Of a DNA stretch of 64,000 nucleotides, positions 1,517 through 35,161 are shown one piece after another. Source of the stretch: an uncultured Flammeovirgaceae bacterium (lineage in GTDB: Bacteria; Bacteroidota; Bacteroidia; Cytophagales; MED-G16); assembly GCA_913046795.1 (NCBI GenBank), contig CAJWTC010000002.1, positions 1,994-65,993 of the forward strand. Direction: 5' to 3'. Position numbers and translations under genes: made by a program. Each line of letters begins with the position of its first letter. Positions within the stretch are counted from its first letter, which is position 1. The notes below the pieces were generated by a model. That model saw nothing but the letters and a program-made list of their open reading frames with translations, was not told the DNA's origin and searched no databases.

Positions 1517-4500
1517 ATGTTTGGTTTTCTCAAGAAAATATTAGGATCTAAATCAGATAAGGATTTGAAAGAAATCTATCCTTTAGTTGATAAAATCAAC
1601 TCTGAATATGACAAGCTTAACACAATAAGTGATGAAGATTTAAGATCAAAGACAGAAGAATTCAAATTAAAAATTAAAAATTCATTAATAGAGACAGAGG
1701 AAGAAATTAATAATCTAAAAATTAATTATGAAAATAATAAAGGCTCATTGGATGAGAAAGAAGAAATATTAAATTCTATTGATAAAATAACAGAAAATCA
1801 AAATAAAATTATTGAAGATATATTAAATGAAATTTTACCTGAAGCATTTGCCGTAGTAAAAGAGACTGCTAGAAGGTTTTCAGAGAATGGTTCACTTGAG
1901 GTAGAGGCAACAGATTTCGACAAAGAAATTGCACAGAAGAAAGAAAACATTAAAATAAAAGGCTCTAAGGCGATATGGCTAAATAAATGGGAGGCAGCTG
2001 GTGTTTCAATTGAGTGGAATATGGTTCATTACGACGTCCAGCTAATTGGGGGTGTAGTCCTTCACCAGGGTAAAATATCAGAAATGGCAACAGGTGAAGG
2101 TAAGACATTGGTTGCAACCTTACCAGCATATCTCAATGCTTTATCTGGGAGAGGAGTTCATATTGTCACAGTGAATGACTACTTAGCAAAAAGAGATGCT
2201 GAGTGGAATGCTCCCATTTTTCAATTCCATGGACTTGAAGTTGACTGTATAGATAAACACGATTCTAATTCTAGTGAGAGAATTAGGGCATACAATGCTG
2301 ACATCACATACGGGACAAATAACGAATTTGGTTTTGACTACTTGAGAGATAATATGGTTAGAGAAAAATCAGAACTAGTTCAGCGCAAACATAATTTTGC
2401 AATGGTCGATGAAGTTGATTCTGTCCTCATAGATGAAGCAAGAACCCCTCTAATTATCTCTGGTCCTATACCCAAAGGAGATGTCCACGAGTTTTTTGAT
2501 CTAAAGCCCAGAATTCAAAAGCTTTTTGACCTGCAAAAGAAGATAGTAACAAATTATTTATCAGAAGCTAAAAAGTTAATAACTGAGGGAAAGGAAGAGG
2601 AAGGAGGATTATCATTATTTAGAGCATACAGAGGCTTACCTAAATACAAGCCTTTAATAAAATACCTTAGTGAAATCGGAACAAAGGCAATAATGCAGAA
2701 AACAGAGAATATTTATTTACAAGACAACTCTAAGTTAATGCCTGAGGCAGATAAACCTCTTTACTTCACAATAGAAGAAAAAAGCAATAGTATCCAATTA
2801 ACTGAAAAGGGAACCGATACCATTACAAGTTCAGGTGATGACAAAAACTTCTTTATAGTTCCTGATATTGGGGTGGAGATAGATAAAATAGAAAAATCGG
2901 ATAAACCTATAGAAGAAATTGCTAAAGAAAAAGAGAAGTTAATCCAGGATTTTAGTGTAAAGACTAAAAGAATACATAGCATAAACCAACTTCTTAAAGC
3001 TTATTCTCTTTTTGAGAAAGACCAAGAGTATGTTGTTATGGATTCAAAAGTAAAAATAGTTGATGAACAGACTGGTAGGATTATGGAGGGAAGAAGGTAC
3101 TCAGATGGTCTCCACCAGGCAATTGAAGCAAAGGAAAATGTTAAGATTGAGGATGCATCTCAAACTTATGCAACCATAACTCTCCAGAACTATTTCAGAA
3201 TGTACAACAAATTATCTGGTATGACTGGGACAGCCGAAACAGAAGCCGGAGAATTCTGGGAGATATATAATTTAGACTGTGTGGTTATACCAACAAATAG
3301 AGATATAGCAAGGTCTGACATGGAAGATAAAATATACAAGACCCTTAAAGCTAAATTTAGTGCTGTTATTGATGAGATAATTGAACTTAAAAATAATGGT
3401 AGACCAATACTTGTGGGAACTACATCTGTCGAGATTTCAGAACTTCTTGGAAGGATGTTAAATATGAAAAAAATTCAGCATCAAGTTTTAAATGCAAAAC
3501 AACATGCAAAAGAAGCAGATATTGTTGCCGAGGCTGGTAAACCCGGCACCGTGACAATAGCAACAAATATGGCAGGAAGAGGTACAGATATTAAACTTAC
3601 AAGTGAATCTAAAGAGAGTGGTGGCTTAGCTATTATTGGTACCGAAAGACACGAGTCTAGAAGAGTAGATAGACAATTACGTGGTAGATCAGGCAGGCAA
3701 GGAGATGTGGGTTCTTCTCAATTTTTTGTTTCATTAGAAGATAATTTAATGAGATTGTTTGGATCTGATAGGATGATTAAAGTAATGGATAGAATGAATA
3801 TGGATGAGGACGAAGTCATTCAGCATAGCATGATAACAAAATCTATTGAGAGAGCTCAGAAGAAGGTTGAAGAAAATAATTTTGCAATTAGGAAAAGGCT
3901 TCTTGAGTACGACAATGTAATGAACTCACAAAGAGAAGTTATATACAAGAAGAGAAGGAATGCCATAATTGGAGAGAGATTAGAAGTTGATATTTTAAAT
4001 ACTATTTATGACACTTGTGACGATATAGTCTTAACCTCAAAACAAAATGATAACTATAAAGATTTTAGGCTCAATGTATTAACTATTCTAGGTCTTGACT
4101 ACAGCAAATTAAGCGAGGAAGATTTCAGGCAGAAGCAACCAGAGGAGATAACAAAATCATTATTCGAAGCTGTAAATGATAATTATAATAGAAAAAACAA
4201 TAGTATTTCAGAGGCTGCATACCCTATCCTTAAAAAGATAAAAAAAGAAAGAGGTGGTGTGGTAAAAGATATTTTAATTCCATTTACAGACGGTAACAGG
4301 CAGATAGGTGTCTCTGTAAACCTTGAAGATTCATTGGAAAGCAAAGGTAAAAACATTATTAAAGAAATGCAGAAGACAGTTTGCCTCGGAATGATTGATT
4401 TAAATTGGAAAGAACATCTTAGAGAAATGGATGATCTGAAACAATCTGTACAAAGTGCAGTATATGAACAGAAAGACCCCCTAGTGATTTATAAATTTGA

Positions 4501-4846: not shown

Positions 4847-5328
4847 TTCTAATTTTTTTTTGCCTCTCATATTTTCTGTGTGGCTGCATAAGCCAGCAGG
4901 CTACTGTATCAAGTAATGATTCCAGGAGATATTTTGAAGACCTCTCCTATATTAGAGAATCCGAAACTAACTTTCAGAAAGAAGAAATATTAGATGAAGT
5001 CTACACTTTAGATACTAACTTAGGATTAAATAATAAGATAGATAGCATACTAAGTATAATTAAAAGTGAAGTAAAAGAAAATATCTATACTGATGGCTTC
5101 ACAATACAAATATATTTAGGTGATGATAGAGGTGAAGCTGAAAATACAGTAGAAAAGTTATTTGAATTAGATAGCCTTATAGAAAGTAAAACAGTTTTTA
5201 CTCAGCCAAATTACAGAGTTAAAACAGGAGGTTTTTTAGATAGATTTAATGCAAACTATGAGTTTAAGAAACTAAAAAAAGAATTTCCCAATGCTATTAT
5301 TATCCCTGAAAAAATTAAAATCAATTAA
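4825..5328 (+). CDS. SPOR-domain-like lipoprotein
   Basis: N-terminal LIFFCLSYFLCGC lipobox-like signal. C-terminal GFTIQIYLG...AENTVEKL...PNYRVKTGGF...A..EFKKLKKEFPNAII resembles a SPOR repeat. Overlaps the secA stop by 22 nt. Confidence 0.55.
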   Translation: MCCYRRLVLIFFCLSYFLCGCISQQATVSSNDSRRYFEDLSYIRESETNFQKEEILDEVYTLDTNLGLNNKIDSILSIIKSEVKENIYTDGFTIQIYLGDDRGEAENTVEKLFELDSLIESKTVFTQPNYRVKTGGFLDRFNANYEFKKLKKEFPNAIIIPEKIKIN

Positions 5329-6352
5329 ATAATTGATTCCTCATATTATCATTTATAGATAAGGCAATAATTAAAGAAACAATTAATCCTATTGCTGCAA
5401 ATAAAGTATCTTTTCCTATCATCTTAAGCGCTTTCTTATAATCTCCACCATTCTTTCTAAGATTTATAGCTATCTCTCTTCCACCAAGAAGTCCAATAAA
5501 AACCCATGTAGTACTAATTGGTATTGAACTTATAACCTTTAAATAATATAGTAGACATGCATAGATGAAGTCGACGACCGTGGCTGCCCTTACATCTATT
5601 ATATCTGATTTCTCTAATACAATCTGTTGTATTTTATCCCCTCTTAAATAAAATAATAAACCGAGTCCAAAAAAGATAAATGAAGTAACCACTAGAAATT
5701 GATCAAAAGTTAATGATCGAGGTAACACTACAGCGACATTTGCCATATCTTGCATTATCCAAGTTGACCAAAGTGCACCACTTGATATCCATTGTAATGG
5801 TAACCATATTCTTGAAGGCTTAGTATTTTTATACTTTTCAAATAAATTAGTTGTTATTGTCCATACGATAATAGCAGCAGTAAAGGCAATAACATATCCA
5901 AATAGACTTTTAGATAGTATACTAGTTATAGAGCTTGCTTGAGTTGCAAAAGCACTTAATAAAAGGATTGATGTAGAAACAGGCATTTTTAATCTTGTCA
6001 TCATTAACAAAGCTACTGGAGCAAAAACCTGAAGAAATTTAAAATTTTGAGGTGCCTCATTTAGACCTTTTGATGCCAGTCTTCCATAGCTAATATCACC
6101 TGAATAATTTATCCAACTATAAGACACAGTTATAATAAAAATTCCACCCATATAAATCCAGAGATAATACCACTTTTTATCAGAATTTGAGGCAATAAAT
6201 GTACCAATAGTTTGTATACTATCATTTGCAATTGCCGAATAGGAAGCCATGAAAAAAACACACCACATAGCTACAGCAGGATATGGGTAAACTAACCAAC
6301 ATAAAGCTGACAGAATGATAGGGGCTATTAATTCATTTTTTTTAAATTTCAT
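5321..6352 (-). CDS. polytopic membrane protein, distantly PiT (inorganic phosphate transporter)-like
   Basis: 343 aa, about 10 hydrophobic segments. Duplicated motifs SAIANDSIQTIG / MQDMANVAVV and MPVSTSILLLSAF / PISTTWVFIGLLGG recall the PiT GANDVAN and PVSTTH..G signatures. The family call is tentative. Confidence 0.45.
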   Translation of the reverse strand: MKFKKNELIAPIILSALCWLVYPYPAVAMWCVFFMASYSAIANDSIQTIGTFIASNSDKKWYYLWIYMGGIFIITVSYSWINYSGDISYGRLASKGLNEAPQNFKFLQVFAPVALLMMTRLKMPVSTSILLLSAFATQASSITSILSKSLFGYVIAFTAAIIVWTITTNLFEKYKNTKPSRIWLPLQWISSGALWSTWIMQDMANVAVVLPRSLTFDQFLVVTSFIFFGLGLLFYLRGDKIQQIVLEKSDIIDVRAATVVDFIYACLLYYLKVISSIPISTTWVFIGLLGGREIAINLRKNGGDYKKALKMIGKDTLFAAIGLIVSLIIALSINDNMRNQLFN

Positions 6353-30218: not shown

Positions 30219-31049
30219 ATGAATAAACCATTAACCAATATTATTTTATTACTTCTTCTAATATCTTGCAAACTACAGAGACAATTTTTGCCACTAAAAA
30301 TTAATGAAACTTCAGGTCTCGAATATTATGATGGCAATTTTATAACACACAATGACTCAGGAGGTGAACCTGTTCTATATGAGTTTAATAAAGATGGAAT
30401 AATTATTTCTGAATATGAAATCGAGGGTTGTGGAATAAATAATGACTGGGAAGATATAACATCAGATAATAAGAATTTTTATATTTCTAATTCTGGTAAT
30501 AATTTTGGCACTAGAGAAGATCTTGCTGTGTTAATTATTGATAAGGAAAGTGACTTTAAATGCAAAGGTCAAATTCAATATAAATACAAAAACCAAGTCA
30601 AATTCAAGAGTAGAAGCAAACACCCATACGATTCTGAAGGAATAATATCTGTCGGTGATGAATTAGTTATTTTTTCAAAAGACAGACAAAATTTAGTTAC
30701 AAAATTATACATCTTACCTAAAGTGGCTGGTTCTTACGAAATCGAACCATTCCATTCTTACGATGTAAACTCATTAATCACTGGAGCAGATTATGATGAA
30801 ACCCTAAAATTAGTATCACTCGTAGGGTATGATTTTGTTGAAGATGGTGGTGAGTCAGAAAGTCAATACCTTTACACAATAAGTAACTTTAACATAGAAA
30901 ATTTAGATCAATCGATAATTAAAAAATATAAAATTCCAGTTGGAAAAGCTCAGATAGAGGCAGTAAAGATAGTCGACGAGTCAACCTTCTGGATTACATC
31001 AGAAGATGAGGGTAACGGGTTACCAAGATTATTTAAATTTAAAATATAG
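30219..31049 (+). CDS. hypothetical lipoprotein, possibly beta-propeller (SdiA-regulated/phytase-like pattern)
   Basis: 276 aa. Lipobox LLLISC. INETSGLEY...THNDSGG...NDWEDIT...DSEGI...SEDEG repeats suggest blades. The family call is weak. Confidence 0.45.
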   Translation: MNKPLTNIILLLLLISCKLQRQFLPLKINETSGLEYYDGNFITHNDSGGEPVLYEFNKDGIIISEYEIEGCGINNDWEDITSDNKNFYISNSGNNFGTREDLAVLIIDKESDFKCKGQIQYKYKNQVKFKSRSKHPYDSEGIISVGDELVIFSKDRQNLVTKLYILPKVAGSYEIEPFHSYDVNSLITGADYDETLKLVSLVGYDFVEDGGESESQYLYTISNFNIENLDQSIIKKYKIPVGKAQIEAVKIVDESTFWITSEDEGNGLPRLFKFKI

Positions 31050-31054
31050 AGAAC

Positions 31055-31900
31055 ATGGAAGATTTATTAATGGTTAGGACTTTTGGAATAGTGGGCTGCA
31101 TGCTAATAATATCTACGATAACAGCAAGGCTAAACAAAACTTACGAAACATTTACAGAAAAGCTATTAACAATTTTGGGAGCCTTCGCTTCAATAATTAT
31201 GGTATGGGTTTTTGGAGATATATATCCTAATAATATTATTGCATGCGTATTTCTTTCAGGGTTTGTAGGTTGGTCTTTAGGCCCTACCATTGGGTACATA
31301 GGACAAAAGTTTAAATGGAATAAATTTTTAAAAGATAAAGGAGTGAAAACGAAACAGATAAGTAATAAATCTGGTTTCTGGGGAACAAATAATAATAAGC
31401 ATTTCGTCTATTATTTTGAAGGTGACGAGAAAAATTATTTTGGATTAAGATCGAAGAAGATGCGCGCACTTGAGGACGATTTCAATAAAAATGTTTTGTC
31501 TGTTGATAGTGACCCATACAACCAAGTGTGGCAGAATGTTGTATTCCAGGCAATGTTATCAACTTGTATTGCAGTTTTTACAACGATGTTGGTTGTTTAT
31601 ATATCTCCATACAATTTTAATTTTTTAGGGGTAATCCTTTTGGTTTCTCTAATTGCATTAATAATAATGAGAATCTTAAATGCTTATATATTTAAATCTG
31701 CTAAACAGATGCTTTACCAGAGTTATGCTGGCATTGTAATCTTTACACTATATCTAGTATATGATTTTGATAGACTAAAACAGGCTAATATAGCAGGTGA
31801 TAACTCTTGGGGTACGGCAATTGATATAGCCGTTAACATATACCTTGATATAATTAATCTATTTATTGAATTGCTTATTGCAATGAGTGAAAACCAATAA
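31055..31900 (+). CDS. BAX-inhibitor-1/YccA-like membrane protein with a central hydrophilic insertion
   Basis: 281 aa, 7 hydrophobic segments. C-terminal LVYDFDRL...AIDIAVNIYLDIINLFIELL matches the BI-1 hallmark (YDTQ...A..LYLDFINLFL.LL). An about 80-aa polar segment follows TM3. Confidence 0.5.
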   Translation: MEDLLMVRTFGIVGCMLIISTITARLNKTYETFTEKLLTILGAFASIIMVWVFGDIYPNNIIACVFLSGFVGWSLGPTIGYIGQKFKWNKFLKDKGVKTKQISNKSGFWGTNNNKHFVYYFEGDEKNYFGLRSKKMRALEDDFNKNVLSVDSDPYNQVWQNVVFQAMLSTCIAVFTTMLVVYISPYNFNFLGVILLVSLIALIIMRILNAYIFKSAKQMLYQSYAGIVIFTLYLVYDFDRLKQANIAGDNSWGTAIDIAVNIYLDIINLFIELLIAMSENQ

Positions 31901-31902
31901 AA

Positions 31903-31926
31903 AAGGGCATTTTAAAAAACGCCCTT
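31903..31926. terminator. candidate bidirectional intrinsic terminator hairpin between convergent genes
   Basis: AAGGGCATTT-TAAA-AAACGCCCTT. The GGGC/GCCC stem is extended by A:T pairs, with one A.C mismatch. A T-run follows on the minus strand (TTTTTATTGG). It lies between the stop at 31900 (+) and the stop at 31950 (-). Confidence 0.4.
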
Positions 31927-31949: not shown

Positions 31950-32618
31950 TTATTTTTTTACCATATCCTGGTACTGGTAGTAGTCACCAACTGGGTACAT
32001 TACATGTGCATAAGGTGAACCTGCGAACATCACATAAGGCTCGCCAGAATTAAAGTCCGTAGTCATGCCATCTAAAGACGCAGGATCCTTTGGCATCCTC
32101 ATCAGATGAGGTCCAGACTCTATCCAGTGTCCTTCAGCTGCATCCTCTTTATTGAGGACCATAGGCTTCGTATTATCCTCACCCATATCTCCATGAAGCA
32201 TCCAAGCGTAACCGTCTTTTGCCATTACCTCTCCAGGAACAGTCCCAGCAAAATATGCACCTATCCACTTAAAAAATTCAGCGTCTCCACATGCAGGCAT
32301 CGCCTCGTGTGGATCAACCCAACCGTTCTCAGGATCTGACATTCCTCTAGGATTTGCAGGCAAACAAGTCCAACCGTTCGTTCCCTCTCTCAATAATTTA
32401 CCTCCCATGTCAGGTGGACCGTCGTACACAGCAGCACCTTCTGCAATAAACTCGGGAGCAGCTGTAGAATATGCCCATACCTGCCACTCTACACTTGTGT
32501 GTGAACCTTCTGGCTCACCATCCATACTCATGCCCATTCCCATATCAGAATTATTTGATGGTGCAGAGCATGCTGCTACAACAAAAATAGTAGCAATCAT
32601 TAAATAAAATTTTTTCAT
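31950..32618 (-). CDS. hypothetical lipoprotein encoded by a compositionally atypical (about 50% G+C) gene
   Basis: 222 aa. Lipobox IFVVAAC, Met-rich DMGMGMSMDG, Gly/Ala/Pro/Trp/Tyr-rich mature part. One ORF spans the whole high-GC block. No family recognised. Confidence 0.75.
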   Translation of the reverse strand: MKKFYLMIATIFVVAACSAPSNNSDMGMGMSMDGEPEGSHTSVEWQVWAYSTAAPEFIAEGAAVYDGPPDMGGKLLREGTNGWTCLPANPRGMSDPENGWVDPHEAMPACGDAEFFKWIGAYFAGTVPGEVMAKDGYAWMLHGDMGEDNTKPMVLNKEDAAEGHWIESGPHLMRMPKDPASLDGMTTDFNSGEPYVMFAGSPYAHVMYPVGDYYQYQDMVKK

Positions 32619-32698: not shown

Positions 32699-32920
32699 TT
32701 AACCTGAACATTCACCATCTACCCATGACGTTACCCCATCCCTCCCAGCATAACAAGAGTTTGAATAAGTCACGTTATCACACCCACAAACTGGCTTATA
32801 AATTTCTATACAAACTGCATCCTCATCACCACTAGTTTTACAAGGAGATACTGAATCATTAGATTTTTCCGAACAACCAAGTAGAATTAGTGTAAAAAAA
32901 AAGAATAGTATGCTTTTCAT
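32699..32920 (-). CDS. Kazal-like cysteine-rich lipoprotein (paralog 1)
   Basis: 73 aa. Lipobox LILLGC. CIEIYKPVCGCDNVTYSNSCYA....GEC fits the Kazal core C-x-x-x-Y-x-P-V-C-G-x-D-x-x-T-Y-x-N-x-C. Confidence 0.7.
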   Translation of the reverse strand: MKSILFFFFTLILLGCSEKSNDSVSPCKTSGDEDAVCIEIYKPVCGCDNVTYSNSCYAGRDGVTSWVDGECSG

Positions 32921-32922
32921 AA

Positions 32923-33372
32923 TTATATTATTTTAAAGTCAGAAATAGTATAACCAATCTCTTCATCTGCAATCATCTCATCCATATCAAAATATATATC
33001 AATAGGAAAACCATATGTTTGGTCAAACTTTAATGTAAATATAAAGGGATCATCTTTCAGTTTTTCATCAATAATATTAAATAGTTCATCAACGGTCTTC
33101 ACATTCCAATAATCATTATTTAACTGCTCAGGTGTTACTAAATTAGAATTAACTTTTGTTATTTTATTATCTATAACTTCTATGCTGTTGGGTTCTGTAT
33201 CTAGACAGTAACAGGATACAGTAAGAATATATGAATAAGAGTTAATATTTGAATTATTCCACTTTTTTATAGCGGTTGAAAACTCCATCTCTACTGGATC
33301 CAATGTTACAGAGTCTTCAGATGAGCAACCTATAGCAAATAATAAAATTAATATTTTAAGTAAGTTTTTCAT
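32923..33372 (-). CDS. DUF6174-like lipoprotein
   Basis: 149 aa. Lipobox LLFAIGC. YSYILTVSCYC...IEVIDNKI...TVDELFNII...FDQTYGFPIDIYFD...ADEEIGYTISDFK resembles the DUF6174 pattern as I recall it. 2-nt gap to the downstream Kazal-like gene. Confidence 0.5.
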   Translation of the reverse strand: MKNLLKILILLFAIGCSSEDSVTLDPVEMEFSTAIKKWNNSNINSYSYILTVSCYCLDTEPNSIEVIDNKITKVNSNLVTPEQLNNDYWNVKTVDELFNIIDEKLKDDPFIFTLKFDQTYGFPIDIYFDMDEMIADEEIGYTISDFKII

Positions 33373-33407
33373 TTACAGTAAATATCCAATTATAATAATT
33401 TCTAACA

Positions 33408-33614
33408 TTAACATTCACCGTCAGTCCAGGATTTGACTCCATCAATCTCGGCATAACAAGAATTAGAATAGGTATTGTTATCACATCCACATACTGGCTC
33501 ATAGACTGTTAAACAAGCCATTCCGTCTAAAACATCTGTTTTACATGGTAAAGAAGAGTCGTCATTACAACTAAAACTAAAAATTATTAAAAAGGTAAAA
33601 AGTATATTTCTCAT
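33408..33614 (-). CDS. Kazal-like cysteine-rich lipoprotein (paralog 2)
   Basis: 68 aa. Signal LIIFSFSC. CLTVYEPVCGCDNNTYSNSCYA....GEC. 29 of 45 aligned mature positions are identical to paralog 1 (hand alignment). Confidence 0.7.
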   Translation of the reverse strand: MRNILFTFLIIFSFSCNDDSSLPCKTDVLDGMACLTVYEPVCGCDNNTYSNSCYAEIDGVKSWTDGEC

Positions 33615-33643: not shown

Positions 33644-35161
33644 TTATTTTAAAAGACTTTTTCCTGTCATCTCATCAGGTAACCCAATACCCATAATATC
33701 TAATATAGTAGGAGCAATATCACCTAACTTTCCATCATTTAAATTTCTCTTATTATCTGACACATATACTATTGGTACTAAGTTAGTAGTGTGATATGTG
33801 TGAGGAGACCCATCTTTATTTATCATTACATCTGCGTTACCGTGGTCAGAAGTCACAAGAACTTCGTAATCATTTTTGATTGCAGTAGAAACTATTTTAG
33901 ATACCTCTCTATCAATAACCTCACACGCTCTTACAGTGGCATCGATACTACCTGTGTGGCCTACCATGTCGGGATTAGCAAAATTCAAACAAGCAAAATC
34001 AAATGATTTTTTATTTATTTCATCTATAAATTTTTTAGAGATTTTTTCAGCACTCATCTCTGGCTGTAAATCATATGTTGCAACTTTTGGCGACTCACAA
34101 AGAATTCTCGATTCATTTTTGAAAGGCTTCTCCCTGCCCCCTGAAAAGAAAAAAGTAACATGAGGATATTTCTCCGTCTCTGCAATTCTTAACTGAATTT
34201 TATTTTTGTTAGATAAGACTTCACCTAACGTATTTGACAAATTTTCTTTGTCGTAAAGTACAGAGATATTTTTAAACTCATCATTATAGTTTGTCATTGT
34301 CATATACCTCAAATTCATTTTTTTCATTCCGTGAGAAGTCAAATCATTTTGAGTTAAAACCTCAGAGAGTTCTCTCATCCTGTCAGACCTGTAATTAAAT
34401 GAAAAAAGTACATCGCCTTCTCCTAAGACACCAACCGGTTTGTTGTCTTTGTGGCATACTATTGGCTTGATAAACTCATCTGTAACATTATTATCATGTG
34501 ATGCTTCTATAGATTTTATTATGTCTTCACTGGCTACACCTATACCCTTGGTCATCGAGTCAAATGTTAACTTAACCCGCTCCCATCTCTTATCTCTATC
34601 CATTGCATAATACCTCCCACTCACTGTTGACAGGTTAATATTTGTTCCAGAGATATAATCTAATAATTTATTAAACTCTCCAATCGAATCCAGTGGCCCA
34701 GAATCTCTTCCGTCTGTAAATAGATGTAAATTAACCTTCAATTCATTAAACTCTCTCAGAAAATCTAGTACGTAATAGAGATGATCTGAATGCGAGTGAA
34801 CTCCTCCCCTAGATAGAAGGCCCATAACGTGGAAATCTTTATTATTTTTTATGGCGTATTCGACAGATGACAGAAACTCTTTTATCTCTCCAATACCTTT
34901 ATCTGCTAGAGACTTATTCAGCCTGATGAGATCCTGATCCACTACTCTGCCAGCACCTATATTCATATGGCCAACTTCTGAATTTCCCATCTGACCATCG
35001 GGTAGTCCCACGTCAACCCCAGAAGCGGAAAGAGAAGCTGATGGATAATGGTCAATTAAATGATCATAAAATGGTGTGTTTGATTTATGAATTGCAGAAA
35101 CATCTGGATCCTTACCAAGACCCCAGCCATCCATAATTAGAAGAATTACTTTTCTAGACAT
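33644..35161 (-). CDS. gpmI: 2,3-bisphosphoglycerate-independent phosphoglycerate mutase
   Basis: 505 aa. LLIMDGWGL, GNSEVGHMNIGAGR, SGRYYAMDRDKRWERV, TSDHGNAD. Confidence 0.95.
   Translation of the reverse strand: MSRKVILLIMDGWGLGKDPDVSAIHKSNTPFYDHLIDHYPSASLSASGVDVGLPDGQMGNSEVGHMNIGAGRVVDQDLIRLNKSLADKGIGEIKEFLSSVEYAIKNNKDFHVMGLLSRGGVHSHSDHLYYVLDFLREFNELKVNLHLFTDGRDSGPLDSIGEFNKLLDYISGTNINLSTVSGRYYAMDRDKRWERVKLTFDSMTKGIGVASEDIIKSIEASHDNNVTDEFIKPIVCHKDNKPVGVLGEGDVLFSFNYRSDRMRELSEVLTQNDLTSHGMKKMNLRYMTMTNYNDEFKNISVLYDKENLSNTLGEVLSNKNKIQLRIAETEKYPHVTFFFSGGREKPFKNESRILCESPKVATYDLQPEMSAEKISKKFIDEINKKSFDFACLNFANPDMVGHTGSIDATVRACEVIDREVSKIVSTAIKNDYEVLVTSDHGNADVMINKDGSPHTYHTTNLVPIVYVSDNKRNLNDGKLGDIAPTILDIMGIGLPDEMTGKSLLK

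Follow-up and report, generated by a model that had tools for sequence, protein, structure and literature searches.

Two small lipoproteins of the Kazal family, here called K1 and K2, flank a lipoprotein of the Pfam family DUF6174 on a 64,000-nt stretch (the window) of contig CAJWTC010000002.1, which derives from an uncultured marine bacterium of the Cytophagales (Bacteroidota). Both belong to a bacterial sub-type of the Kazal domain, named CGC after its Cys-Gly-Cys motif, in which the first disulfide bond appears to be re-routed. In our reading, which we give a probability of about 45%, K1 and K2 are lipid-anchored inhibitors of subtilisin-like proteases that work by the standard mechanism and are probably exposed at the cell surface; the DUF6174 protein would be a coupled partner. 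The genes and their predicted functional sites were as follows (C1 to C6 denote the Kazal cysteines and C3+2 the position two residues after C3).

33644..35161, minus strand: gpmI, 2,3-bisphosphoglycerate-independent phosphoglycerate mutase (Pfam Metalloenzyme and iPGM_N), the housekeeping gene upstream of the lipoproteins
33408..33614, minus strand: K1, open reading frame (ORF) encoding a lipoprotein of 68 aa; one Kazal domain of the CGC type (Cys 24, 34, 42, 44, 53, 68; predicted P1 Thr36)
33489..33515, minus strand: putative reactive-site loop of K1, C-L-T-V-Y-E-P-V-C (C2 to C3), aligned to the Kazal loop via matches to solved structures (PDB)
32923..33372, minus strand: DUF6174 lipoprotein of 149 aa (Pfam PF19671; lipobox Cys16 followed by S-S-E-D)
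33205..33213, minus strand: invariant C-Y-C motif of DUF6174 (Cys54 and Cys56), from alignments; these are the sole Cys residues in the mature protein
32953..32976, minus strand: invariant loop M-I-A-D-E-E-I-G, lying between the final two strands of DUF6174 (columns M133, A135, D136, E137, E138, I139, G140)
32699..32920, minus strand: K2, ORF encoding a lipoprotein of 73 aa; one Kazal domain of the CGC type (Cys 27, 37, 45, 47, 56, 71; predicted P1 Glu39)
32786..32812, minus strand: putative reactive-site loop of K2, C-I-E-I-Y-K-P-V-C, from the sequence and the family consensus I-E-I-Y

The first-pass annotation of this DNA had described three consecutive lipobox ORFs on the minus strand downstream of gpmI, and its coordinates and gaps agree with ours (gpmI-K1, 29 nt; K1-DUF6174, 35 nt; DUF6174-K2, 2 nt). 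The outer two ORFs are also paralogous, as it had proposed: 32 of 52 residues are identical (62%, E = 2e-22). Differences between K1 and K2 were concentrated in the segment preceding C2 and in the loop, while the block PVCGCDNxTYSNSCYA was identical. The core motif given for them stands, including the absence of the canonical fifth Cys (C4+3) and the extra Cys at C3+2; only the spacer after C-Y-A had to be corrected, being 12 residues in both proteins instead of 13-14.

Kazal inhibitors are textbook animal proteins. Both bacterial proteins scored above the gathering score (21 bits) of Pfam Kazal_1 (PF00050, MEROPS I1), K1 with 23.5 and K2 with 28.3 bits, so that the suspected Kazal relationship gained support from a profile search. 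Matches to Kazal_2 were just below threshold (21.9 and 16.8 bits, respectively, cutoff 22.8), and a search of the cassette proteins against NCBIfam returned only sub-threshold noise (LvhB7, TraN, OATP). When K2 was compared by phmmer with the sequences of solved structures, it matched ovomucoid (1yu6, E = 3.9e-9), the leech tryptase inhibitor LDTI (2kmo, E = 2.5e-6; residues 36-71, end to end from C2 to C6), and CrSPI-1 of the horseshoe crab (3qtl, E = 1.7e-5); further matches included rhodniin, PSTI, and agrin. The loop scaffold is kept in K2 as C37-I-E-I-Y-K-P-V-C45, with C2 at P3, Tyr at P2′, and Pro at P4′, together with T51-Y-S-N54-S-C56, and the same positions are kept in K1. Residues Y41, P43, V44, T51, Y52, N54, and A58 were invariant across 27 close homologs; the loop-scaffold residues among them (Y41, P43, V44, T51, Y52, and N54) were also kept across 108 unique family domains. 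Judged by sequence, K1 and K2 are thus single-domain members of the Kazal family.

Their cysteine pattern differs from those of classical and non-classical Kazal domains. Classically, C5 comes two to three residues after C4 and the disulfides are 1-5, 2-4, and 3-6; this pattern was not found, as no Cys lies between C4 and C6. Neither was that of the 'non-classical' Kazals, which are defined by a displaced first disulfide and of which group II has a cystine-stabilised helix with C-x3-C after C4 (PMC3082530): Cys29 of LDTI aligns with Arg60 of K2, and none of the 108 family domains carries a Cys in the helix region. In a family profile search, 10,842 representative proteins among 1.84 billion matched at E ≤ 1e-3. 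The best 150 of these were examined and were mostly long multi-repeat proteins; the named ones were bacterial (a Halioglobus hypothetical protein and a Chitinophagales 'PKD domain-containing protein'). From these best matches, 1,042 of 1,135 HMM-defined repeats (HMM, hidden Markov model) could be classified by their cysteines.

Cys at C3+2 present, canonical C5 absent: 627 repeats
Cys at C3+2 absent, canonical C5 present: 208 repeats
Cys at C3+2 present, canonical C5 present: 6 repeats
Cys at C3+2 absent, canonical C5 absent: 201 repeats

The two cysteines are therefore mutually exclusive (odds ratio 0.009, Fisher p = 2e-93), and the upstream C1 was present in 616 of the 627 CGC repeats. Because C1 is kept while C3+2 and C5 exclude each other, C3+2 seems to replace C5 as the partner of C1, and a first disulfide re-routed from C1 to the Cys at C3+2 is the simplest reading. 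This covariation supports the rewired disulfide suggested by the first-pass annotation. The disulfides of K2 would accordingly be C27-C47, C37-C56, and C45-C71, i.e. 1-(3+2), 2-4, and 3-6. Since no Cys lies between C4 and C6, the CGC form fits neither non-classical group and appears to be a third Kazal arrangement, for which we found no description in the literature searched (coverage incomplete). It is widespread in bacteria and not special to this locus: with 627 of the 1,042 repeats from the best matches, and thousands of proteins overall, being of this kind, the notion of CGC as a local peculiarity was dropped.

Relatives of K1 and K2 make up a broad family. A metagenome scan anchored on the Kazal motif yielded 550 confirmed relatives, 80 of which were kept. 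Nearly all of these are 65-90 aa long and carry one CGC-Kazal domain behind a signal peptide, a lipobox Cys, and an acidic stretch. Over the 108 unique domains, the loop followed the consensus I/T-E-I/V-Y-x-P-V with low entropy: P2 was Ile in 84, P1 was Glu in 97 (90%; Thr in 5 and Ala in 4), P1′ was Ile or Val in 95, and P2′ was Tyr in 105. As the search patterns started at P2′, the consensus at P1 and P2 was not forced by them. The K1 loop, L-T-V-Y, is one of the five rare P1 Thr forms. Among characterised Kazal domains, those with P1 Glu (domain 2 of CrSPI-1 and shrimp SPIPm2) act as inhibitors of subtilisin, and for CrSPI-1 the Ki is 1.43 nM (PMC3082530). Because P1 Glu goes with subtilisin inhibition in these proteins, inhibition of subtilisin-like (S8) proteases is the best functional prediction for the family. 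Two metagenome loci each carried two different small Kazal lipoprotein genes within 2 kb (L136, 726-974 on the minus and 2959-3180 on the plus strand; L167, 1-240 on the plus and 2074-2349 on the minus strand). Multiple copies per genome with different loops (C-T-E-E-Y, C-P-A-V-Y) thus occur outside the source lineage as well.

All lipoproteins of the locus have a lipobox that could be read from the sequence (K1, FSFS-C16; DUF6174, AIG-C16; K2, LLG-C16; the downstream gene L4, VAA-C17), and Cys16 was invariant in both the Kazal and the DUF6174 alignments. In Bacteroidetes, surface export of lipoproteins is signalled by a polar or positively charged residue and, after it, two or more acidic residues within positions +2 to +6 (LES), as in K-(D/E)2, SDDDD, or SDDFE (PMC5080379). 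Similar stretches follow the lipobox in K1 (N-D-D-S-S), in DUF6174 (S-S-E-D-S), and in most of the orthologs (D-D-E-D-S-S), although validation of the consensus stems from Capnocytophaga, Bacteroides, and Flavobacterium, all outside the Cytophagales. K2 (S-E-K-S-N) fits this signal poorly and L4 (S-A-P-S-N) does not fit it. Of 107 small Kazal family members, 78 had two or more acidic residues in this +2 to +6 stretch, which makes surface exposure of the Kazal lipoproteins plausible.

The gene between K1 and K2 was correctly assigned to DUF6174 by the first-pass annotation: the protein matches PF19671 over nearly the full profile (positions 2-121 of 122, E = 1e-27, 97.3 bits, gathering score 23.8), as do all 17 aligned homologs. 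A confident AlphaFold2 model built with these 17 homologs (mean predicted local distance difference test, pLDDT, 84.9; predicted template modelling score, pTM, 0.76) comprises a helix, three strands, two helices, and three strands. A Foldseek comparison with solved structures gave a best E of 0.047 and TM scores ≤ 0.40, with LolA/LolB/RseB-like hits that were not taken as homology; a profile search of PDB sequences gave no match, and no secondary Pfam family was detected in DUF6174 or its homologs. The model thus suggests a new alpha+beta fold without solved relative. Both invariant motifs, C54-Y-C56 and the M133..G140 loop, coincide with the two lower-pLDDT stretches. The cysteine motif is kept as C-[FY]-C in each domain of distant homologs from Chloroflexota, Thiotrichales, and Rubrivirga. 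Among these, two Chloroflexota ORFs contain three tandem DUF6174 domains, each with its own C-F-C (L090, 3948-5369; L093, 4413-5813), and in a Thiotrichales locus (L091) one DUF6174 domain follows calcium-binding-like GGxGxD repeats in a stop-to-stop frame of 554 codons.

Linkage between DUF6174 and Kazal domains was surveyed from both sides. For the DUF6174-anchored survey, 80 species-representative genomes were scanned with custom HMMs. DUF6174 was directly followed by a Kazal gene, always after gpmI, in eight Marinoscillaceae species, and the same gpmI-DUF6174-Kazal order was found on metagenome contigs; K2 orthologs follow DUF6174 in L005-L010 and L014-L023. The gap between the two genes, 2 nt in the window, is 2-7 nt or an overlap in the relatives, which suggests co-translation of DUF6174 and K2. 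In five Marinimicrobia/Neomarinimicrobiota species both parts are found in one 199-aa lipoprotein, DUF6174 with a C-terminal CGC-Kazal domain (P0065/P0066). The reverse order occurs in two Flavobacteriaceae species, where a lipoprotein of about 450 aa carries two degenerate Kazal-like modules N-terminal to DUF6174. The link is maintained across two phyla and down to 41-45% DUF6174 identity. In a neighbor-joining tree of DUF6174 domains (no bootstrap), the clade with adjacent genes was sister to the Marinimicrobia fusion clade, and the Flavobacteriaceae fusions (L028, L029) were placed elsewhere. This placement points to at least two independent linkage events, one with fusion or fission. Taken together, adjacency and fusions are good 'Rosetta-stone' evidence that the two families are functionally linked, and the Kazal and DUF6174 proteins probably work together. 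This evidence is qualified by the promiscuous nature of the Kazal module and by the mostly separate occurrence of the two families.

Within the Flavobacteriaceae fusions (L028, 3846-5327; L029, 3864-5327), the first module has the loop C-I-E-I-Y-A-P-V-C, a long insert after C3, and no CGC, and the second has C-M-C before the loop and C-E-A-I-C after C4. Next to the Marinimicrobia fusion gene (L001-L004, L026, L030, L031), a YbjQ_1 gene lies upstream in four of five species, and a 307-aa Abhydrolase_2 (esterase) lipoprotein is encoded 35-40 nt downstream in three of five. A link of the fusion to a serine hydrolase is possible; the Abhydrolase_2 lipoprotein, found next to the fusion in just those three species, was not taken as a cognate protease.

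Under the reading we prefer, the Kazal lipoproteins would act as substrate-like, tight-binding serine protease inhibitors whose lipid anchor holds them at the cell envelope. Standard-mechanism inhibition is the most likely mode because the canonical scaffold C2-x-P1-x-Y-x-P-V-C3 and the Asn of T-Y-x-N-x-C4 are kept, and surface exposure is probable because the acidic stretch after the lipobox resembles the Bacteroidota export signal. K2, with P1 Glu, would target subtilisin-like (S8) proteases; K1, whose loop has diverged to P1 Thr, may cover a second specificity. DUF6174, with its invariant C-x-C and D-E-E site, would be the genetically coupled partner, as conserved adjacency and two kinds of fusion suggest, and may contact the Kazal proteins physically.

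A number of observations weigh against this reading, some against inhibition and others against coupling. As to inhibition, the Kazal_1 match spans only profile positions 7-29 of 49, i.e. half of the profile. The Kazal part (residues 151-199) of an AlphaFold2 model of the fusion P0065 had a pLDDT of about 39 and was uninformative, so the fold was not confirmed by modelling; misplacement by MAFFT of short N-terminal pieces of the Kazal rows in the input alignment may have contributed to this low value. Many Kazal-like domains (those of agrin, follistatin, and OATP) are not inhibitors, and proteins of these types appeared among the weaker matches of the NCBIfam and PDB-sequence searches. The loop is conserved and not hypervariable as in classical Kazal inhibitor families. 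It could therefore have a structural or non-protease binding role. Its conservation also speaks for a single, conserved type of partner and not for an arms race. No protease recurred among the neighbours of Kazal-only or DUF6174 loci, and a motif scan of the window detected no S8 or S1 protease. In the literature searched, we found neither an experimental study of a bacterial Kazal protein nor a paper on DUF6174.

As to coupling, 65 of the 80 DUF6174 loci had no Kazal protein within the available flank. The Kazal-anchored survey comprised 80 metagenome loci, 18 of which were at contig ends and uninformative; DUF6174 was adjacent in 11 of the 80, and 51 of the 62 informative loci were without it. 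Hence, the recurrent co-localisation anticipated by the first-pass annotation holds for the eight species with adjacent genes and for the two kinds of fusion, and fails for most loci of either family. In addition, Kazal-like modules are promiscuous in bacterial multidomain proteins, being fused to many other domains, which weakens the argument from fusions. In the closest relative (L096, about 87% nucleotide identity), gpmI is followed by one Kazal gene (4001-4216) and L4, with no DUF6174. All of K1 can be aligned with this Kazal gene, and so can the 3′ half of K2, a pattern that would fit loss of DUF6174 via recombination between the K1 and K2 repeats. Seven further metagenome loci had the same gpmI-Kazal-L4 layout. 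Loss of the adjacent DUF6174 thus need not remove the Kazal gene from this locus. The arrangement with two flanking Kazal genes is not general either: K1 was absent in the eight related species and is a lineage-specific extra copy, K2 being the conserved downstream partner, and K1-DUF6174-K2 was repeated exactly only in L099, a contig of the same population as the source.

These data would also be expected if K1, K2, DUF6174, and L4 were independent neighbouring lipoproteins, the fusions reflecting no more than module promiscuity and the adjacency in eight species a single inherited arrangement. We consider this unlikely, since it has to accommodate three architectures (DUF6174 followed by Kazal, DUF6174-Kazal fusion, and fusion of two Kazal-like modules to DUF6174) in two phyla and two separate DUF6174 clades, the short gap suggestive of co-translation, and persistence of the link at low DUF6174 identity.

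Where DUF6174 occurs without a Kazal partner, two genomic contexts stood out. One, shared by 19 Flavobacteriaceae species, places it some 25 nt downstream of a gene for a fused ResB/CcsA (CcsBA) cytochrome-c biogenesis protein of 1043 aa (L024, L034-L043, L048, L051, L052, L056, L057, L062, L064, L065, L071, and L079, at about 5001-5440; L011-L013). A conserved 71-aa peptide with two transmembrane segments often comes next, and a TerB-like gene occupies the other strand; in L013, DUF6174 is present as a tandem pair of genes. The other context is that of Aquirufa and related Cytophagaceae, where DUF6174 comes after an ApbE-DUF2271 fusion and a PepSY_TM_like_2 protein, in a cluster of the extracytoplasmic flavinylation/iron-reductase type (L053, L059, L063, L066, L068-L070, L072, L074, L078, L081, L085). 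A Cys-rich 121-aa lipoprotein without Pfam family is encoded on the other strand at these loci. Both contexts are extracytoplasmic redox systems.

They lend some weight to an alternative in which the pair forms an envelope redox or metal module, with DUF6174 as a thiol-redox or metal-binding lipoprotein acting via C-[FY]-C and M..DEE and the Kazal protein as its disulfide-knot partner or substrate. In Cox11, a CFCF motif binds Cu(I), and some CXC motifs are redox-active. The C-x-C of DUF6174 is the sole Cys pair of the mature protein, is invariant from Bacteroidota to Chloroflexota, and occurs once per tandem domain; a conserved loop and the lack of proteases near the loci would suit such a module as well. 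DUF6174, however, showed no likeness to oxidoreductases or metallochaperones by fold, PDB sequence, or Pfam family, and the argument from context is weak because each redox context belongs to roughly one lineage and may be inherited synteny. On the Kazal side, all residues that rigidify the loop are retained, including the Asn, which a mere disulfide substrate would not need, and P1 Glu has a documented protease correlate. We therefore regard a redox or metal module as unlikely.

Rather improbable, in our estimate, is a more far-reaching version in which DUF6174 is an unrecognised extracytoplasmic fold with a metal or redox site made up of C-[FY]-C and M..DEE, and CGC-Kazal its dedicated partner in a new two-component envelope system. 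The Kazal scaffold would then have been recruited beyond protease inhibition, and the system would be kin to the DUF6174 proteins encoded beside cytochrome-c and flavinylation/iron-reductase genes.

Alternatively, DUF6174 might be a folding helper, a C-x-C isomerase or chaperone for the non-canonical Kazal disulfide, with the Kazal protein remaining the effector inhibitor. The invariant C-x-C would fit this role, as would the unusual C-G-C of a partner with three disulfides in 45 residues and the position of the DUF6174 gene before the Kazal gene, or fused to it in some genomes. Yet a dedicated helper is not required, since hundreds of CGC-Kazal repeats, and the majority of small Kazal lipoproteins, are found without DUF6174; covalent fusion at 1:1 would be unusual for a catalyst, and DUF6174 is widespread without any Kazal protein. 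This possibility thus appears very unlikely.

Downstream of K2, after a gap of 78 nt, lies the last of the four minus-strand lipobox ORFs that follow gpmI.

31950..32618, minus strand: L4, ORF for a GC-rich lipoprotein of 222 aa, no known family
31903..31926, minus strand: terminator-like hairpin after L4, 10-bp stem and T-run, from a consensus scan only

The first-pass annotation had placed its putative surface protection or interference module next to this high-GC gene; the inclusion of L4 in a module was not supported. L4 was present in most Marinoscillaceae loci; in L009, a GH16 gene takes its place, it was absent from L023 and from all fusion loci, and a homolog with 69% identity follows carotenoid genes in L178. 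On these grounds a module of four lipoproteins was ruled out, and L4 is an unrelated neighbour outside the conserved DUF6174-Kazal unit. It had no match in Pfam, NCBIfam, or PDB. More than 790 homologs were found in marine metagenomes, where it is abundant and strongly conserved, with a Met-rich N-terminus (MGMGMSMDG) and the long invariant blocks LREGTNGWTCLP.NPRG, DGYAWMLHGDMGEDN, and GHWIESGPHLMRMPKDP. Its GC content (45-48%) exceeds that of the window (about 27-33%). Horizontal transfer as the cause was mostly rejected: GC at third codon positions was 0.36 versus 0.20-0.29 in the neighbours, and richness in Gly, Ala, and Pro raises GC at first and second positions, which were both high.

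The hairpin was the sole strong terminator-like structure around the gene run, and the transcription unit probably ends there. Two genes converge on the cassette, one for a 276-aa lipoprotein without Pfam family (30219-31049, plus strand) and one for a membrane protein of the Bax1-I family (31055-31900, plus strand), both syntenic in Marinoscillaceae relatives. The gpmI gene, present in all of these relatives, served as the synteny anchor. The nearest genomes were metagenome-assembled genomes of marine Marinoscillum/Marinoscillaceae ('Flammeovirgaceae'), and the remaining window is ordinary chromosome with genes for SecA, aminoacyl-tRNA synthetases, and purine metabolism. A PADLOC search for anti-phage defence gave no match.

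Several known systems can be compared with the proteins described here. With the classical Kazals (turkey ovomucoid third domain OMTKY3, PSTI/SPINK1), K1 and K2 share a C2-x7-C3 loop in which P2′ is Tyr and P4′ is Pro, the core C3-G-x-D-x-x-T-Y-x-N-x-C4 with its loop-stabilising Asn, the C-terminal C6, and significant sequence matches. They differ in lacking C5, in the extra Cys at C3+2 and the apparently moved partner of C1, in being lipid-anchored and bacterial, and in their conserved loop. The first disulfide is likewise displaced in the non-classical Kazals of group II (LDTI, rhodniin, bdellin) and group I (CrSPI-1, Anemonia elastase inhibitor) (PMC3082530). These share the short spacing from C4 to C6; K2 aligns with LDTI over C2 to C6, and domain 2 of CrSPI-1 has the same P1 Glu. 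Both groups keep the fifth Cys in or after the helix (C-terminally shifted or as C-x3-C), whereas the predicted partner Cys of K1 and K2 is in the strand right after C3. Closest in signature are the bacterial multi-repeat CGC-Kazals (P0191 with 18 repeats; Chitinophagales; Halioglobus), which also follow C-x(9-12)-C-P/I-x-x-Y-x-P-V-C-G-C-D/N-G/N-x-T-Y-x-N-x-C-x-A-...-W-x-x-G-x-C. Those proteins are long and secreted, usually with Pro at P2 and a variable P1, while K1 and K2 are single-domain lipoproteins of a family in which the loop I-E-I-Y is conserved.

Among microbial proteins, EPI1 and EPI10 of Phytophthora infestans, as cited in PMC9904509 and PMC3082530, are extracellular and Kazal-like, with an acidic P1, and act against a subtilisin-like protease. 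They differ from K1 and K2 in being oomycete proteins that are secreted without lipid anchor, have another atypical Cys pattern, and are aimed at host proteases. Ecotin and other serine-protease inhibitors of the bacterial envelope resemble K1 and K2 in the proposed role, that of an envelope inhibitor that shields the cell from exogenous serine proteases (PMC9904509), but differ in having an unrelated fold and mechanism; ecotin is a soluble periplasmic dimer of broad specificity. As for Pfam DUF6174 (PF19671), of which the middle gene encodes a full-length member, the linkage and fusions to Kazal domains add information on the family.

Single-domain, lipid-anchored Kazal proteins thus form a large family in marine Bacteroidota, and their conserved P1-Glu loop leads to the concrete prediction of subtilisin-type inhibition at the cell surface. 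With its strong covariation, the CGC form would represent a third wiring of the first Kazal disulfide that is common in bacteria. Through its genetic linkage and fusion to Kazal domains, DUF6174 gains a first functional lead. Should the inhibitor role prove false, the DUF6174-Kazal pair would point to unknown envelope biochemistry. If it is true, the Kazal proteins could help abundant marine heterotrophs to survive in surroundings rich in proteases, be these their own secreted enzymes or those of competitors or grazers.

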